A DNA stretch of 32,000 nt from Candidatus Saccharimonas aalborgensis (GTDB lineage: Bacteria > Patescibacteriota > Saccharimonadia > Saccharimonadales > Saccharimonadaceae): assembly GCF_000392435.1 (NCBI RefSeq), contig NC_021219.1, positions 270,001-302,000 of the forward strand, given 5' to 3'. Below, piece by piece: positions 6,306 to 26,504 of this stretch; the stretch's first letter is position 1, and each line of letters opens with the position of its first letter. A program made the position numbers and the translations under genes. The notes beneath the pieces were generated by a model that saw nothing but the letters and a program-made list of their open reading frames with translations, had not been told where the DNA came from and did no database searches.

Positions 6306-8408
6306 TTAGCATTTTTCGAGGCGCGCGTACTCGACATTTAGTTTTTTTGTCTGGCCGCTATCGAACGAAACGGTCACTGCGAGCCCATCAATATCAATGA
6401 TTTCCCCCTGACCAAACTGTGGCGATCGCACTCTATCCCCAATATCAAGCGAAAAAGAAAACTCGTCGAATTCGTTCGTCATTGATCGTTGATAGGGAGA
6501 TACACTGGCGGCCACATATCCCATATCCTCTAAAAAACGTGATGGAGTGGTGTAGGATCGTTGTCCAAACTGAAGACGGCTTCCGGCATAGAGCAGATAG
6601 AGCTCCTCTCGGGCACGTGTCATGCCGACATAACATAACCGACGCTCTTCCTCGAGCTGACGCGGCCCCTCCTCGAGTGCTCGCATACTGGGAAACAGCC
6701 CTTCCTCCATGCCCACTATAAAAACAACGGGAAACTCGAGTCCTTTTGCAGCATGAAGTGTCATGAGCGTCACGACAGACTCGGTGCTACCTACATCGGC
6801 ACTCGACATCAGCGCGACTTCCTCTAAAAAGTCGTCGAGCGATGCATACGATTTCGCATCAGATATCAATACACCCAGGTTTGCCTCTCGCTCCTCGGCT
6901 TGTGGTGATCCATCAAGTAGCATGTCTCGATAACCAGTCGCAGACAACAGCTCCTCTATCAGCTCGCTAGGACCAACACCTAACTCACTTTTTACCTGCA
7001 CGCGCCGCAATAATTCTCCCAGTCCGCTCAGCGCCTGTCGCGCTCTGGAGGTCAGGGTTGCTGTCTGCTCAGCATTGACAAGTGCTGAGAGAATGTCCAT
7101 GCCCGACTGGCTCTGCCATACAAGAAACTTTTCCAGACTAGTTGCACCAATTCCTCTTGTGGGCACATTGACAATGCGGCTAAAGCTCATACGATCGTTT
7201 GGTTGGTAAAGTAGACGCAGATATGCCACGATATCTTTTATTTCTTTACGGTCATAAAACCTCACGCCACCAACCAGTTGATAGGGTATCCGCTGCTGCA
7301 CGAGCGCACGTTCGAGGGCATAACTTTGTGCGTTAGTACGATAGAGTACAGCAAAATCACCGAACGATCTCGCACCAATTGCAGTCTGTGCGGCAATCCG
7401 CGTTGCTACCACGCCCGCCTCTTCTGTTTCATCATAAACACCCTGCACCTGGACAGGAGCGCCTGCACCAGCGGTGGTCCACAGCTTCTTCTCTGTACGT
7501 TCAATGTTCTTTGAAATCACGTTATGCGCTGCTTCGAGAATAGCGCCAGTCGATCGGTAATTCTGTTCGAGCTTGATAACTGCGGCGCCTGGAAAATCTC
7601 TCTCAAATCCCAATATATTTTTGAAATCAGCACCGCGCCAACTATAGATTGACTGCCAATCATCACCAACAACACAGATATTCTTTTCTGGCCCGATAAG
7701 TGCCTTCATGATTGCGTACTGTGCTGCATTTGTATCTTGATATTCATCGATGAGAATATGACGAAATTGTGCTTGGTAGTGGTTGCGAGTCTTGGGCGAA
7801 TCACGAAATAGTCGTACTGTTTCGAGTAGCAGATCATCGAAATCCACCGCACCCGCCTCCTTGCGTCGCTGTTCGTAGCGTGCGTACAACTTGGCGACCG
7901 ATTTCTGGAAAGGGAACTGTGCAACATCGGCGTATTCTTCTGGACCCACCATTTCATTTTTTGCACTTGATATCGCCGCACTAACGGCTCGTGGCTTTAC
8001 CATATCGGCGCTGAGCGACAGTTCTTTCATCGCCTGTTTGATAAGACCCTGACGATCATCGTCGTCGTAGATCACAAAGTTACTTGCGATACCAATCTCG
8101 CTGCCATGCTGCCGCAAAATCCTTACGCAAACTGCATGAAATGTGCCCATCCAGGGCATAAAAGAGCGTGTTATCTGCTGGTCTAACAGCTTTGCCAGGC
8201 GTTCTCGCATCTCTTTGGCAGCCTTATTAGTGAATGTGACGGCGAGTATCTGATTTGGCCAGATACTCTCATGGGCAAGAAGATAGGCGATACGATGCGT
8301 GAGCGTCTTTGTCTTGCCGCTTCCCGCTCCTGCAAGAAGCAATAGCGGACCGCTCGTGGTTGTCACAGCAGTTTTTTGCGCATCATTAAGTCCGTCGAGG
8401 ATATCCAT
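6306..8408 (-). CDS. pcrA: ATP-dependent DNA helicase PcrA/UvrD (SF1)
   Basis: I moved the start to ATG 8408 (MDILDGLNDAQKTAV...), giving 700 aa. It has Walker A (AGAGSGKTKTLTHR), motif II (IDEYQDTN), TFTNKAAKEM, the NYRS and TLHAAKGLEFPVVF helicase motifs, and a PcrA-type C-terminal Tudor-like tail. Confidence 0.92.
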   Translation of the reverse strand: MDILDGLNDAQKTAVTTTSGPLLLLAGAGSGKTKTLTHRIAYLLAHESIWPNQILAVTFTNKAAKEMRERLAKLLDQQITRSFMPWMGTFHAVCVRILRQHGSEIGIASNFVIYDDDDRQGLIKQAMKELSLSADMVKPRAVSAAISSAKNEMVGPEEYADVAQFPFQKSVAKLYARYEQRRKEAGAVDFDDLLLETVRLFRDSPKTRNHYQAQFRHILIDEYQDTNAAQYAIMKALIGPEKNICVVGDDWQSIYSWRGADFKNILGFERDFPGAAVIKLEQNYRSTGAILEAAHNVISKNIERTEKKLWTTAGAGAPVQVQGVYDETEEAGVVATRIAAQTAIGARSFGDFAVLYRTNAQSYALERALVQQRIPYQLVGGVRFYDRKEIKDIVAYLRLLYQPNDRMSFSRIVNVPTRGIGATSLEKFLVWQSQSGMDILSALVNAEQTATLTSRARQALSGLGELLRRVQVKSELGVGPSELIEELLSATGYRDMLLDGSPQAEEREANLGVLISDAKSYASLDDFLEEVALMSSADVGSTESVVTLMTLHAAKGLEFPVVFIVGMEEGLFPSMRALEEGPRQLEEERRLCYVGMTRAREELYLLYAGSRLQFGQRSYTTPSRFLEDMGYVAASVSPYQRSMTNEFDEFSFSLDIGDRVRSPQFGQGEIIDIDGLAVTVSFDSGQTKKLNVEYARLEKC

Positions 8409-15144: not shown

Positions 15145-15219
15145 TGGTGATCCCACCGGGAATCGAACCCGGATTGCCAGGATGAAAACCTGGTGTCCTA
15201 ACCGTTAGACGATGGGACC
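15145..15219 (-). tRNA. tRNA-Glu (anticodon UUC)
   Basis: Minus strand: GGTCCCATCGTCTAACGGTTAGGACACCAGGTTTTCATCCTGGCAATCCGGGTTCGATTCCCGGTGGGATCACCA. It folds as a cloverleaf with the anticodon loop TTTTCAT (TTC), a GTTCGATT T-loop and an encoded CCA. TATAAT lies ~9 nt upstream. Confidence 0.9.
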
Positions 15220-15264
15220 GTAATTATATTGTAAGATACTTTAGTTCGATTCCGCGCGGGAATC

Positions 15265-15354
15265 GGCCACCTTGCCGGCGGCCCCGCCTCGACCCACTTG
15301 AAGCATAGCTTCAAATCGGTCTCCGGCCTTGCGAAGTGCCACTGGCACTTCTCA
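15265..15354 (-). repeat. tRNA-associated structured repeat, copy A (~90 nt)
   Basis: Minus strand: TGAGAAGTGCCAGTGGCACTTCGCAAGGCCGGAGACCGATTTGAAGCTATGCTTCAAGTGGGTCGAGGCGGGGCCGCCGGCAAGGTGGCC. It is homologous to copies at 25967-26055 and 26280-26367 and shares three hairpins with them. Confidence 0.75.
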
Positions 15355-15406
15355 CCCGGATTGCCAGGATGAAAACCTGGTGTCCTAACCGTTAGACGAT
15401 GGGACC
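15355..15406 (-). pseudogene. 5' fragment of tRNA-Glu (first 52 nt, through 5' strand of T stem)
   Basis: It is identical to nt 1-52 of the intact tRNA-Glu. It is then interrupted by repeat copy A. After the repeat only CGATTCCCG resembles tRNA, and then the sequence diverges. Confidence 0.75.
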
Positions 15407-15565
15407 ATCGTGCCGCGAAATTGGCTCCCGTTATTCTATCAAATCTATAAAGACATATCAAGAAAAATATATTCGAAATAACATTTTTAGTTATTTTGCA
15501 ACATATTTTGCCCATCACCCCTGTTATACACTATAGCCATAAGCGTTAAAACATGGCAAAATATA

Positions 15566-15594: not shown

Positions 15595-15944
15595 GTAATG
15601 GTCACTGGGCGTGAGGTGGAAGCCACGACCTAGCGGAGGATCGTTGACAATCAGGCTATACCTTATAGGTACGAATTGCCTGTGTATGCGGCCACGAGAA
15701 TAGGACGTCACCAAGCCATCATTCTTTTCCTATTTTTGTGGCTGCATATGCAGCATGAAGTACACTTGAGAATACAATCAAATCTGGTTGTTCTCCTTTA
15801 GCGCCATTGCTCATCAGCAAGGGGTACGCACGTCATACGTGTGTGTCACCGGCCGATGAGCAATGCGCAAGCTCGTCGACCGGCATCTCTGCCCCATCAT
15901 ACAAGTTGGGGCACCCGCCCCTCGACCAGTCCAGGAGGACAATC

Positions 15945-16373
15945 ATGAACAACGCAACCCGTCAGCACTACTTCCGTGCCCTCCTCGCCGCGCTCAACGC
16001 CGGCGACGAGCGGTACTGGGCCACGAAGGCCGAAGCCTTCGTAGTGGAGCTCGCAAAGGGCGACAAGGCCCTTGCGGACTTCGTCGCGGCCGTCAAGGCC
16101 GCGACTCCGCCCGGCTCCAACACGTACTTCGCGACGTTCAGCGCCCTCATCCATCAGGTCGCCAACACTGGCGACCTCGGGCGTGGCATCGCCCTCGGCC
16201 GCCAGATCGCCGGTATCAGCGCGTCCACGAACCCCTACGACCCGCAGCCCAAGGGCCCCGGCGTCGTCGGGGCGTTCAAGGACAGCTACCACAAGGGCCG
16301 CGACAAGGCGCGCTCGCGCGCCGTCCGTCCCACGGCTCCCGCTGCCGGCACCCGCCGGCGAGTCGGTCTCTGA
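15945..16373 (+). CDS. hypothetical protein (high-GC island gene 1)
   Basis: ATG at 15945 follows AGGAGG (15933-15938); 142 aa (MNNATRQHYFRALLAALNAGDERYWATKAEAF...). Third codon positions are almost all G/C in this frame. The C-terminus is basic. No motif recognised. Confidence 0.65.
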   Translation: MNNATRQHYFRALLAALNAGDERYWATKAEAFVVELAKGDKALADFVAAVKAATPPGSNTYFATFSALIHQVANTGDLGRGIALGRQIAGISASTNPYDPQPKGPGVVGAFKDSYHKGRDKARSRAVRPTAPAAGTRRRVGL

Positions 16374-16399
16374 ACACCCACTAGAAGAAGGGAGAAGGC

Positions 16400-17821
16400 A
16401 TGGACTTCATGCCGCAGTGGCCCACCTGGATCGTCTCCGGTGGGTGGCTCATCGTCCTCGCGATGGTGGCGTGTGCCATCATCGCGACCCGCATCAACCG
16501 AACGGCGGGCATCCTGCTCGGCGCCCTGGTGTTTTTCGCCGGGTTCGCCTGGGTCGCCCCCGTCTGGCTGACCTTCCTGTTCGTCATCTTGGCCGTGATC
16601 GGGCTCATCACCTGGCTCACGCAGGGCGGCGACAAGAACTACCTCAGTCTCGGTGCAATCGGAGCGCTGATCATCAGCGCGCTCCTGGCCTCGAACCTCG
16701 CCGCGGGATGGCCCCAATGGTCCAACCCGCTCGGCTGGTTCAACCGGGACGAGCCGGTTGTCAACCTGTCCGTCGGTCCCAACAGCCTCATCCCCGACTC
16801 CGCCAAGTGCGAGAGCAAGGTCTACACGGCCAAGTCTCTCGTCAAGGTCGGGCCGTCGGGCCGGCTGTGGGCCGACGGCGTGTCGACGCCGTTCGTCGCC
16901 ACCGACAACGACGGACGCCTCGGTGAGACGCTCGACGAGGTCTGTGGCAACACGACCCTCGGCGATGCCTATGCCCAGGCTCTGGTCGACCCGCACGCCA
17001 CGATCAACGGCGTGCCGATCGTCGACCGCAACCTGTGGCTTCGCGACATGCTCGCGAAGTCCCAGGCCAAGGGCCTGAGGGCGGCGTGGCTCACCTACCG
17101 CTTGGGCGACGACGGCAAAATCATCACGGACGCCAACGGCAAACCGGTCATCTACGTGACCGACGAGTACAGCCACTACGCGTCCATGATCAACACCCTC
17201 CTGCTCGGGCTCGAGAACCAGGGCACCAAGGACGGTACGTCCATCGTGCACTGGCCCCTCATGGCCCTGACGGCCGATGAGCTGCCGCGCGCCAGCGCCG
17301 TCACCGACCCGAAGAAGCAGGATGGGAGGCCGTTCCTCGCCCTGACCTTCACCCAGAAGGACGGCGAGGCCTGCCCCTTCGTCCTGGCCATCAACATCCA
17401 GGACAAGCGGCCGGAGTATGTCGGCTGCGAGAAGGCCAAGGTGATCGCCCCCGCGCGCGTCACCACGGTCTCCAAGCAGGCGAAGGCCAAGACCACGGTG
17501 CGCCGCACTGTGGTGCACACCTGCGCCGAGCGCGGAATGACCGGCACCTACCCGCTCTGCACCGAGCCCAAGAAGCCCGGTCAGGACGGTGGTGCCTCGG
17601 GTGGGAACGCCAACCCCGGCACGGACGAGTCTGTCGCGCCGACGGACGCTGGTCAGCCCCCGGCGGTCTACACACCGCCGGCAGTGCCGGCTCCGCCCGT
17701 CGTGGACACGCCTCCGGCCCCCACGCCGGAGCAGCAGGCCCCCAAGCCGGACAAGCCGGCCACGGGCGTCAGCTGCCCGCCGGGCCTGCATGACAATGGT
17801 CACGGCGTCTGCACGACGTGA
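16400..17821 (+). CDS. hypothetical multi-pass membrane protein with Pro-rich C-terminus (high-GC island gene 2)
   Basis: 473 aa, with GGGAGAAGG preceding the ATG and strong GC3 bias in this frame. About four N-terminal transmembrane helices are followed by a ~300-aa soluble region with conserved-looking Cys. The tail is PPAVYTPPAVPAPPVVDTPPAPTPEQQAPKPDKP, ending CPPGLHDNGHGVC. Confidence 0.7.
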   Translation: MDFMPQWPTWIVSGGWLIVLAMVACAIIATRINRTAGILLGALVFFAGFAWVAPVWLTFLFVILAVIGLITWLTQGGDKNYLSLGAIGALIISALLASNLAAGWPQWSNPLGWFNRDEPVVNLSVGPNSLIPDSAKCESKVYTAKSLVKVGPSGRLWADGVSTPFVATDNDGRLGETLDEVCGNTTLGDAYAQALVDPHATINGVPIVDRNLWLRDMLAKSQAKGLRAAWLTYRLGDDGKIITDANGKPVIYVTDEYSHYASMINTLLLGLENQGTKDGTSIVHWPLMALTADELPRASAVTDPKKQDGRPFLALTFTQKDGEACPFVLAINIQDKRPEYVGCEKAKVIAPARVTTVSKQAKAKTTVRRTVVHTCAERGMTGTYPLCTEPKKPGQDGGASGGNANPGTDESVAPTDAGQPPAVYTPPAVPAPPVVDTPPAPTPEQQAPKPDKPATGVSCPPGLHDNGHGVCTT

Positions 17822-17827
17822 CTATCC

Positions 17828-17865
17828 GGTGCAGGGGAGACGGCTACGCCGCGCTCCCCTGCACC
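17828..17865 (+). terminator. GC-rich 12-bp perfect hairpin directly after island gene 2
   Basis: GGTGCAGGGGAG (17828-17839) pairs with CTCCCCTGCACC (17854-17865). It starts 7 nt after the TGA stop and has no U-tract, which is the actinobacterial style. Confidence 0.5.
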
Positions 17866-17943
17866 ACCCCAGCGTATTACTCAAGGTACTTCTACGATCC
17901 AGCGGAGCTCATCGCTCGTAGGAGGAACTATGTTCCACCCCCA

Positions 17944-17974
17944 GTGATGACTCCGCTGGTCATCACACTTTTTC
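17944..17974 (+). terminator. intrinsic terminator (hairpin + T-run)
   Basis: GTGATGAC-TCCGCTG-GTCATCAC is followed by ACTTTTT, at the right edge of the high-GC island. Confidence 0.55.
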
Positions 17975-18175
17975 ATTCGTGTCATAAGGTATAGTCTGGT
18001 TGCCCCTACTATCGTCCGGTATATGTGCGTTATTTAACAATACAGATTGCAGCATGTACCGTTTCAATTTTTACTATTCACTCTTGTTTAACTGATAGTT
18101 AATTAAACTAACCCGTAGTTTCAATGTTTCTAGCGAGATACATCGAGACTACACCAATCCATATAAGGAGAATGT

Positions 18176-25907: not shown

Positions 25908-25951
25908 CTCTATAGAAAAACCACCCCATAGCGGGTGGATTTTCTATAGAG
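25908..25951. terminator. long inverted repeat / bidirectional terminator
   Basis: The sequence is CTCTATAGAAAAACCACCC-CATAGC-GGGTGGATTTTCTATAGAG. The GC core CCACCC/GGGTGG is flanked by A/T runs on both strands. It sits between the tRNA-Lys locus and the 522-aa gene. Confidence 0.5.
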
Positions 25952-25966
25952 GGCCAGGAGAGACTT
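25949..25966 (-). pseudogene. orphan 3' fragment of tRNA-Lys (T-loop end, T stem, acceptor strand)
   Basis: The minus-strand sequence (C)AAGTCTCTCCTGGCCCTC is identical to the 3' part of the intact tRNA-Lys up to the first C of CCA. It follows repeat copy B directly. Confidence 0.7.
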
Positions 25967-26055
25967 GGCCACGTTCCGCGGCCCCGAAACTTCACCTATG
26001 AAAGCATAGCTTTCAAGGGAAGGTTTCCTTGCGAACTGCCGACTGGCAGTTCTCA
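25967..26055 (-). repeat. tRNA-associated structured repeat, copy B (~89 nt)
   Basis: Minus strand: TGAGAACTGCCAGTCGGCAGTTCGCAAGGAAACCTTCCCTTGAAAGCTATGCTTTCATAGGTGAAGTTTCGGGGCCGCGGAACGTGGCC. It is preceded by GAGAG, which is the tRNA-Lys T-stem 5' strand. Confidence 0.75.
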
Positions 26056-26101
26056 CTCTCTCCACCCCACGGGTGTGGAGAATTCAAGCCGCCCAAACTC
26101 C

Positions 26102-26140
26102 AAGTAAATTCACCGACCACAGGGATCGGTGAATTTACTT
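26102..26140 (-). terminator. 15-bp perfect hairpin immediately after tRNA-Lys CCA (putative terminator/processing stem)
   Basis: AAGTAAATTCACCGA (26102-26116) pairs with TCGGTGAATTTACTT (26126-26140) around a 9-nt loop. There is no clear U-tract. Its placement parallels the hairpin after tRNA-Glu. Confidence 0.35.
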
Positions 26141-26216
26141 GGAGGGCCAGGAGAGACTTGAACTCTCGACACCCTGCTTAAGAGGCAGGTGCTCTAACCA
26201 GCTGAGCTACTGGCCC
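26140..26216 (-). tRNA. tRNA-Lys (anticodon CUU)
   Basis: Minus strand: GGGCCAGTAGCTCAGCTGGTTAGAGCACCTGCCTCTTAAGCAGGGTGTCGAGAGTTCAAGTCTCTCCTGGCCCTCCA. It forms a full cloverleaf with the anticodon loop CTCTTAA and an encoded CCA. TATAAT lies ~12 nt upstream. Confidence 0.9.
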
Positions 26217-26279
26217 ATAATATTAATTATACCGAAATGTGCGATGAACGATATAGCAAGCGGAGCTTGCAAGAGGCAG

Positions 26280-26367
26280 GGTCACATTCTGCGACCCCCG
26301 AACTTCGCGATTGACAGCGTAGCTGTCATCGGAAGGTTCGTTTCCGAACTGCCACTGGCAGTTCTCA
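26280..26367 (-). repeat. tRNA-associated structured repeat, copy C (~88 nt)
   Basis: Minus strand: TGAGAACTGCCAGTGGCAGTTCGGAAACGAACCTTCCGATGACAGCTACGCTGTCAATCGCGAAGTTCGGGGGTCGCAGAATGTGACC. It is followed by CTGCCTCTT, which matches the tRNA-Lys anticodon-arm sequence. Confidence 0.75.
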
Positions 26368-26392
26368 CTCTAACCAGCTGAGCTACTGGCCC
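26368..26392 (-). pseudogene. 5' fragment of tRNA-Lys (acceptor strand + D arm, 25 nt)
   Basis: The minus-strand sequence GGGCCAGTAGCTCAGCTGGTTAGAG is identical to nt 1-25 of the intact tRNA-Lys. It is then interrupted by repeat copy C. Confidence 0.75.
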
Positions 26393-26504
26393 ATACCTCG
26401 GAAAAGTATAGCAAACAGAGGCCAATTTGTAAATATTACCTCTCGCCTTGTATCCAAAGATGCTCAGGGTTATACTCTATACATAGCTAGTGAGGAGAGT
26501 AGCC

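Follow-up and report, generated by a model that had tools for sequence, protein, structure and literature searches.

A short three-hairpin element in the loops of duplicated tRNA gene fragments of Saccharibacteria

Introduction

In the stretch of Candidatus Saccharimonas aalborgensis DNA analysed here (32,000 nucleotides in all; the window), two intact tRNA genes are accompanied by broken pieces of tRNA genes, and each broken piece abuts a copy of the same short, structured sequence. The locus therefore raises the question of what kind of sequence occupies the loops of tRNA genes, how it reached them, and how the cell retained working tRNAs. Saccharibacteria have genomes of roughly 1 Mb and are thought to carry few mobile elements. 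The sequence described below is a tiny element found at very many Saccharibacteria tRNA loci.

Element copies at the two tRNA loci of the window

A sequence-only reading of the window had proposed three minus-strand copies of a structured repeat, each fused to tRNA gene pieces. The copies are present at the proposed places: the window contains the conserved 5' motif three times, where zero occurrences are expected, and a covariance model (CM) built from 58 copies of other genomes assigns 74.7, 99.5 and 97.4 bits to copies A, B and C, respectively, with nothing else in the window above noise. The core of the proposed bounds is correct; the last base included in them belongs to the tRNA, and the leading T is part of the element, not T54 of the tRNA. 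The element properly runs from TGAGAA to GTG(A/G)C. Two target bases are replaced by each copy (TT, TT and CA for A, B and C, respectively). The fusion to tRNA pieces holds for all three copies, with A and C following 5' fragments and B preceding a 3' fragment.

All features of the tRNA-Glu locus lie on the minus strand. A sigma-70-like promoter, TTGATA-17-TAGAAT with TG (15433..15461), is located 5' of the displaced tRNA-Glu fragment, which comprises nt 1-52 (15355..15406) and shows 0 mismatches with the intact gene. Copy A (15266..15354) is situated in the T loop of this fragment. Its inner flank (15244..15265) is a fold-back junction, formed by cgattcccg, the remainder of the T loop, and then by the inverted T arm cgcggaatcgaac. 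The inverted T arm corresponds to uninterrupted sequence, with gap positions 4-22 matching tRNA positions 52-69 in inverted orientation. A further 24 AT-rich bases separate it from the intact tRNA-Glu(UUC) gene (15145..15219), which lies 46 nt downstream of copy A; in the window, no such promoter exists directly 5' of this intact gene.

In the case of tRNA-Lys, again on the minus strand throughout, the intact tRNA-Lys(CUU) gene (26140..26216) is flanked by an element copy on each side. Upstream, a sigma-70-like promoter, TTTACA-17-TATACT with TG (26405..26433), precedes the displaced 5' fragment, nt 1-25 (26368..26392), and copy C (26281..26367) follows nt 25 of this fragment, at the D stem/position 26. 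The gap between copy C and the intact gene (26217..26280) begins with the anticodon-stem piece cctgcctctt, continues with the small hairpin gcaagctccgcttgc and contains a -10-like TATAAT (26226-26231). Downstream, the gap between the intact gene and copy B (26056..26139) contains three features: a hairpin taking in the CCA end (26100-26142), tRNA nt 43-60 in inverted orientation (26071-26088), and a direct piece comprising the variable loop and the 5' strand of the T stem (26056-26070), which adjoins copy B (25968..26055). Copy B sits in the T loop of the displaced 3' fragment, which extends from C56 to the first C of CCA (25949..25967). An intrinsic-terminator-like hairpin with a T run (25921..25938) lies 3' of this fragment; the locus has no other consensus terminator.

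Both intact tRNA genes of the window thus carry the element alongside. Full sigma-70-like promoters of the window tRNA loci are found only 5' of the two 5' fragments; because these promoters and the terminator flank the fragments, the element copies and the intact tRNAs are nested within the original transcription units.

Two minor features of the window can be added. The 15-nt hairpin gcaagctccgcttgc (26256-26270, minus) stands in place of an anticodon loop after the short flank of copy C, and equivalents occur in L021, L099 and L103 (L-numbers denote loci of the family search described below). The P2 apex of the family CM matches weakly at 26249-26275, in the same gap, and from this similarity the hairpin may be what is left of a second element after most of it was deleted. 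Meanwhile, a GC-rich stretch between the two tRNA loci (about 15800-18000; GC fraction 0.67-0.72 in the CM noise hits, much higher than in the rest of the window) contains long overlapping open reading frames (ORFs), 16286-17803 on the minus and 16400-17821 on the plus strand, without a Pfam match.

A conserved fold on the tRNA-sense strand

Folded individually, the three copies each form the three hairpins previously described; their z-scores relative to shuffled sequences lie between -5.0 and -6.8. In the consensus of 58 different aligned copies, P1 comprises 8 bp and starts 3 nt from the 5' end, P2 is long, variable and central, with 8+5 bp and internal loops, and P3, with 7 bp, ends flush with the 3' end. 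Standard pairing is found in 98% of the alignment cells. Changes on both sides affect 19 of 28 pairs (304 cells, against 76 in shuffles), and the covariation score reaches 0.545, whereas shuffles give 0.16 and slid partners about 0.07. The compensatory helix changes noticed in the three copies are therefore real and hold family-wide, and this pairing and covariation confirm the selection on structure that had been proposed from them.

One P3 pair (columns 79-89) is G·U in 49 of the 58 copies, and another P3 pair is G·U in 15. Simultaneously, the complementary strand folds worse, DNA parameters included. Owing to these G·U pairs and the weaker folding of the complement, the fold is assigned to the tRNA-sense strand, on which it could act either as RNA or as single-stranded DNA. 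The invariant single-stranded bases are UGA, the AGU loop and the GG linker. The conserved parts of the element are its two termini, together about 45 bp; the 5' end lies in an extension of P1 and the 3' end in P3, the ends do not pair mutually, and inspection reveals no dyad symmetry when the termini are joined.

Extent of the family

The 5' motif pattern TGAGAANNGCCAGTN{0,1}GGCNNTTCG was run over species-representative genomes. Further copies were found outside the window in at least 120 loci, nearly all of them in Saccharibacteria/Saccharimonadia metagenome-assembled genomes (MAGs) or untitled "bacterium" bins; other labels belong to two loci of one Parcubacteria MAG, one "Patescibacteria group" and one Acidobacteriota. 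Among the listed loci, L049, L082 and L093 are chance matches. A search by nhmmer, with an HMM from canonical copies, yielded 151 copies in the 120 loci and the window. The window itself is near-identical to a Ca. Saccharimonas aalborgensis MAG (L088, L067). Any two element copies are about 74% alike, and copies within one genome differ by 20-35% while the tRNA fragments beside them still match the intact gene exactly.

The element has no ORF, and no long version with its ends occurs among the 120 loci. No transposase, integrase or reverse transcriptase gene is present in the window, where the proteins are housekeeping or of unknown function; nor was a Y1 transposase found within 1.5 kb of the copies or a reverse transcriptase near them. 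At the gathering score, Rfam 15 returned tRNA only, and at E<=10 nothing relevant appeared in the two copy regions, in agreement with the earlier failure to recognise an RNA family. Hammerhead, twister, pistol, hatchet, HDV-like, group I/II intron and omega-RNA models of Rfam 15 gave no match to the element. Viral contigs, phage records and plasmid records contained no copies. A full-text literature search found no description of the element, and a group II intron paper includes a Saccharibacteria genome solely as an outgroup. The element represents an undescribed family, common in Saccharibacteria.

A subfamily with another central helix, CCGGAG...GAGGCGG (CAAGGCCGGAG...GAGGCGG), was also observed. 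It includes copy A, as a short member, together with L009, L013, L014, L016, L077, L096, L100, L101 and L113; P3 often holds an extra hairpin, which brings the length to 100-160 nt.

Target rule and insertion sites

The element is inserted at RRG^NN^Y, where it replaces the two N bases. The previously suggested target ending in G is borne out, as a G immediately precedes the element in all 109 copies; position -2 is a purine in 104 and position -3 in 101, and the first base after the element is a pyrimidine in 103 of 109. Where both flanks of a copy can be placed on the neighbouring intact tRNA, the target is short by exactly 2 nt (36 of 37 copies). Terminal inverted repeats are absent (the 5' TGAGAAC mismatches the reverse complement of the 3' end, GTCACG), and the flanks show the 2-nt loss instead of a target duplication.

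T-loop sites account for 55 copies, of which 42 follow the final T-stem G and 12 lie one base earlier. A further 16 copies occupy the D stem/position 26, and one the anticodon arm; insertions in the D loop of tRNA-Glu were recognised by eye in L020, L030, L073 and L107. Two copies (L008, L023) lie on the antisense strand of a tRNA-Phe remnant and obey the target rule, and L019 and L095 show a non-tRNA site of RRG^NN^Y form. In L001 (5699-6193), a tmRNA gene (66.6 bits) is followed, about 70 nt on, by a P1-start sequence and a fragment of the tmRNA 3' end; this tmRNA-side element is related, and beyond the P1 start it is unlike the family.

The variable P2 was considered as a guide RNA for the target and rejected: by eye, the same tRNA-Gly site carries unrelated P2s, and identical element copies occupy different tRNAs.

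Architecture of the interrupted loci

The element is co-oriented with an intact tRNA, of any identity, at a distance of 36-90 nt, and two layouts are found. In type I (35 copies), the native upstream region is followed by a 5' fragment, the element, a gap and the intact tRNA. In type II (46 copies), the intact tRNA is followed by a hairpin or terminator, an inverted piece, a short direct piece, the element, a 3' fragment and a terminator. The antisense tRNA-Phe cases share this general layout. At tRNA-Lys, the fragment-element-tRNA-element-fragment layout is kept across species (window, L088, L099). Flanking fragments accompany 10 of 44 tRNAs without the element, against 76 of 93 with it, and many tRNAs within the element loci are free of it. 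The orientation of the element follows that of the tRNA in 81 cases against 2, and that of local genes in 23 against 14; given the latter ratio, an explanation of the orientation by replication-strand bias is not supported.

On the side facing the intact gene, the interrupted copy retains 6-12 tRNA bases, followed by an inverted stretch of uninterrupted tRNA sequence around the insertion site. In type II gaps, the inverted match spans about nt 41-77 in nearly all loci. By strict criteria, the hairpin centres are located 8-14.5 nt from the element, essentially only on the intact-gene side. The duplications share 0-8 nt 5' of +1 and mostly extend 0-3 nt beyond CCA; in L004, L011 and L038 they include the whole terminator. 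The direct tRNA repeats lie only 36-90 nt apart, with no integrase gene or kilobase-scale element between them.

Two readings of these loci were tried and discarded. As an intron of working tRNAs, the element should leave a complete tRNA upon removal, whereas removing it and restoring the two bases yields none in 104 of 105 copies; the sole exception is copy A of the window, in which the acceptor stem would mostly mismatch by inspection. Because no complete interrupted tRNA exists, the intron reading is rejected. The motif TTGAACC near the element was examined as a -35 box; by eye, its spacing to -10-like sequences is 4-15 nt. It is an inverted T-loop copy instead, because it tracks the T-loop variant of each tRNA.

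Some tRNAs without the element have other fillers or degenerate relatives of it beside them. Fragment-plus-filler arrangements with other inserts occur in L022 (3' of the second tRNA-Met), L036 (5916-5962) and L112 (3' of tRNA-Tyr); the fillers include an unrelated insert of about 100 nt, the 16-nt perfect palindrome ttcgccgtacggcgaa, and a short degenerate relative with a P1-like hairpin only. In addition, the native tRNA promoters of many loci (e.g. window 26405-26433) share a spacer motif, ACCCCTGT / CCTCTGTT, between -35 and -10.

Mobility of the element

Near-identical copies span different species and different targets in unrelated flanks. L091, in a tRNA-Leu T loop, and L108, in that of a tRNA-Pro, carry copies that are 100% identical; the figure is 99% for L098 (Lys) and L112 (Thr) and 98% for L021 (Lys D arm) and L057 (T loop). 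The similarity in such pairs begins exactly at TGAGAA and ends at GTGAC. Furthermore, one element lies within another, each time just before P3, in L018, L031, L036, L081, L086 and L090. The element is a discrete mobile unit without coding capacity, with a target rule, a strand-specific structure and a constant architecture. It persists only in partial tRNA copies that are dispensable. Very probably it is a mobile, non-autonomous element whose movement depends on its structure.

Sharp bounds, nested copies and unrelated targets favour one of the readings offered before, a hairpin-ended, non-autonomous mobile element. Its comparison to PATEs and MITEs stands as far as a mobile hairpin element is concerned; classical MITEs have the terminal inverted repeats and target-site duplications that are lacking here, and PATE (IS200/IS605) membership is not established. 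A stand-alone non-coding RNA gene is unlikely, as the element always occurs in the context of a broken tRNA or tmRNA. The remaining suggestion, a conserved arm of an integrative element, is not supported: the mobile unit is exactly the element, no integrase is present in the window, and a large-serine-recombinase island in a related genome ends without the element.

Among multiple insertions, one tRNA-Glu fragment in L020 carries one element in the D loop and another in the T loop, and whole fragment-element-gap units are tandemly repeated in L069 (about 1730-2010) and L055 (36-317).

Proposed route of insertion

The explanation that we prefer, with a probability of roughly 0.55 for the whole statement, is an element of 86-88 nt, confined to Saccharibacteria and a few other Patescibacteria, that is mobilised in trans, has a strand-specific fold, targets tRNA and tmRNA loops, and survives beside an intact copy. 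The element would be recognised through the fold of one strand, the tRNA-sense strand, and an enzyme encoded elsewhere would move it into RRG^NN^Y in or near the loops of tRNA and tmRNA genes. Insertion would replace the two N bases, generating neither a target duplication nor inverted termini. The intermediate may be single-stranded DNA, handled by a trans-acting enzyme of IS200/IS605-like logic; by analogy with such systems, this route is possible, at slightly less than an even chance.

The targeted tRNA genes are presumably single-copy and essential in these roughly 1-Mb genomes, and for this reason insertions would persist only with an intact tRNA copy alongside. The interrupted copy would retain the native promoter in the case of 5' fragments, or the native terminator in the case of 3' fragments, and the duplication could be either a consequence of a surviving insertion or a condition for it. 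The fold-back junction, 8-14 nt from the element, suggests that insertion is coupled to template switching or fold-back repair.

Several observations stand against this explanation. The mobilising enzyme was not found, and the two-base loss and the weak RRG target are unlike IS200/IS605 insertion. No circular element junction was found, and uninterrupted tRNA-Lys or tRNA-Glu with the native upstream flank, which would represent an empty site, gave 0 matches in metagenome contigs. The orientation follows the tRNA more than local genes, which also fits a process at the RNA level; the duplications end near tRNA or transcript ends, which a purely DNA-level model does not predict; and the constant spacing of about 10 nt between element and fold-back is left unaccounted for by the model. 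Only tentatively do we suggest that the element is moved by a mechanism undescribed in bacteria, either as an RNA-level invader of exposed tRNA and tmRNA loops, by reverse splicing or retro-copying, or as a new class of single-strand transposon with target-regenerating fold-back duplication. Such a mechanism would be a self-rescuing way to colonise single-copy essential genes in minimal genomes.

Such an element shows how essential single-copy genes can be colonised by a parasite, each surviving insertion being accompanied by a regenerated gene copy, and it explains tRNA-like debris that confuses the annotation of Saccharibacteria MAGs. The three-hairpin fold, the sharp ends and the RRG^NN^Y rule provide a handle for finding the mobilising enzyme, which could represent a new type of activity for site-specific, single-strand insertion. 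Should the RNA of the element be processed or active, it would constitute a new class of bacterial RNA linked to the biogenesis of tRNAs.

Alternative explanations

Movement at the RNA level would account for several features of the loci. An intron-like or retro-mobile element would be co-transcribed with the tRNA and would enter exposed loops of the transcripts, or a reverse transcriptase would copy it; chimeric cDNA would then re-enter the tRNA locus, the inverted pieces arising from snap-back and template jumps of the polymerase. The element indeed lies inside tRNA transcription units, between native promoter and terminator, in sense orientation in 81 of 83 cases and at loop or elbow positions of the folded tRNA, and its single-stranded UGA, AGU loop and GG linker are invariant. 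The fixed 2-nt target loss resembles that of the site-specific retrotransposon R2, and the duplications stop where transcripts end, 0-8 nt before +1 and mostly 0-3 nt past CCA or just past the terminator. Nevertheless, this explanation is unlikely: no reverse transcriptase is present in the window or was noted near the copies, antisense insertions exist, no known ribozyme or intron model matches the element, the inverted segments copy uninterrupted tRNA gene sequence, and complete interrupted tRNAs, which full-length cDNA should produce, were never found.

Still less probable is that the element serves, or has come to serve, tRNA operons as a functional RNA domain; this could be a module for processing or stability, or a decoy, that is made with the tRNA precursor and maintained by host selection, not by mobility. 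The conserved tRNA-Lys layout (window, L088, L099), the predicted transcription from the native tRNA promoter, and the divergence of same-genome copies beside fragments identical to the intact gene agree with it, and a host function is weakly suggested by pairs at the same tRNA and site across genomes, in which the element is more alike than the adjacent gap in 80 of 87; this excess over the gap is small, given that any two copies are about 74% alike. Nested, tandem, antisense and degenerate copies resemble parasitic spread, many tRNAs in the same loci lack the element, and conservation of structure is expected of any active mobile family. It is very improbable that the element is an att-site arm, the conserved end of integrative elements that target tRNA genes and depend on a large serine recombinase for movement, with the short forms as decayed or miniature islands. 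Large serine recombinase genes do overlap intact tRNA 3' ends in 9 loci, 4 of them beside a type I element; serine recombinases cut around a 2-nt centre, which parallels the 2 nt replaced, and the conservation of both termini would suit an att site. However, conservative recombination leaves the same dinucleotide at both junctions, while the element begins with TG, ends with AC and causes a net loss of two bases; by this junction arithmetic, conservative recombination at the element ends by serine or tyrosine enzymes is rejected. Identity between copies also stops at the element's own ends, the joined termini lack symmetry, the window has no recombinase, and the island in L044 ends in a tRNA-Gly fragment without the element.

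Comparison with known systems

PATEs, miniature derivatives of IS200/IS605 elements, whose Y1 HUH transposase acts on single-stranded DNA, are similar to the element in being small and non-coding, with one-strand hairpins near both ends, without terminal inverted repeats or target duplication, and with insertion 3' of a short motif; they are mobilised in trans, as proposed here. There are, however, significant differences. The element replaces two target bases, recognises only RRG..Y and not a fixed motif of 4-5 nt, and is limited to tRNA/tmRNA gene loops, and a Y1 transposase was not found near the copies. Its P1 and P3 are dissimilar, P3 is flush with the end, and a long conserved hairpin occupies the centre; in IS608, the two end hairpins resemble each other. 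With two target bases lost, a weak target, unlike end hairpins and no Y1 transposase near the copies, PATE membership is not established.

Integron attC and CTX-phi attP sites share with the element a strand-specific fold in which structure is conserved more than sequence, and CTX-phi likewise integrates into an essential site and leaves a working copy. Compared with these sites, the element has three perfect hairpins instead of one imperfect hairpin, lacks the R''/R' (RYYYAAC / GTTRRRY) or R/L core boxes, has no integrase nearby, and is itself the whole mobile unit. The bulge-helix-bulge introns of archaeal tRNAs (Thermoproteales) are also related short inserts at many tRNA positions, D and T arms included. 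They reside in complete functional genes and are spliced at the bulge-helix-bulge, whereas the bacterial element interrupts truncated copies and shows no end-to-end pairing; exons that reconstitute a tRNA and splice sites with 3-nt bulges and a 4-bp helix are both absent. R2 retrotransposons of rRNA genes resemble the element in having a stable-RNA gene target, sense orientation, co-transcription and a fixed 2-bp loss, and differ from it in that the element, at 87 nt and bacterial, has no reverse transcriptase ORF and both its junctions are precise.

Partial tRNA duplicates beside an intact gene are likewise left by tRNA-targeting islands and tandem-inversion duplications, and the latter share the direct-inverted-direct order with junctions at palindromes. 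At the element loci, by contrast with islands, only 36-90 nt and no island separate the copies, and the inverted junction is tied to the element at about 10 nt.

Islands of this kind were encountered in the same genomes. Serine recombinase genes (Resolvase, Recombinase and Zn_ribbon_recom domains) run antisense into intact tRNA 3' ends in L044 (1108-2688), and the same arrangement is found in L059, L092, L103, L105, L036, L108, L022 and L117. In L044, an island of 5.3 kb ends in a fragment of tRNA-Gly, nt 57-71 (6438-6452). Serine-integrase islands that target the tRNA T loop thus seem to exist in Saccharibacteria, separate from the element.
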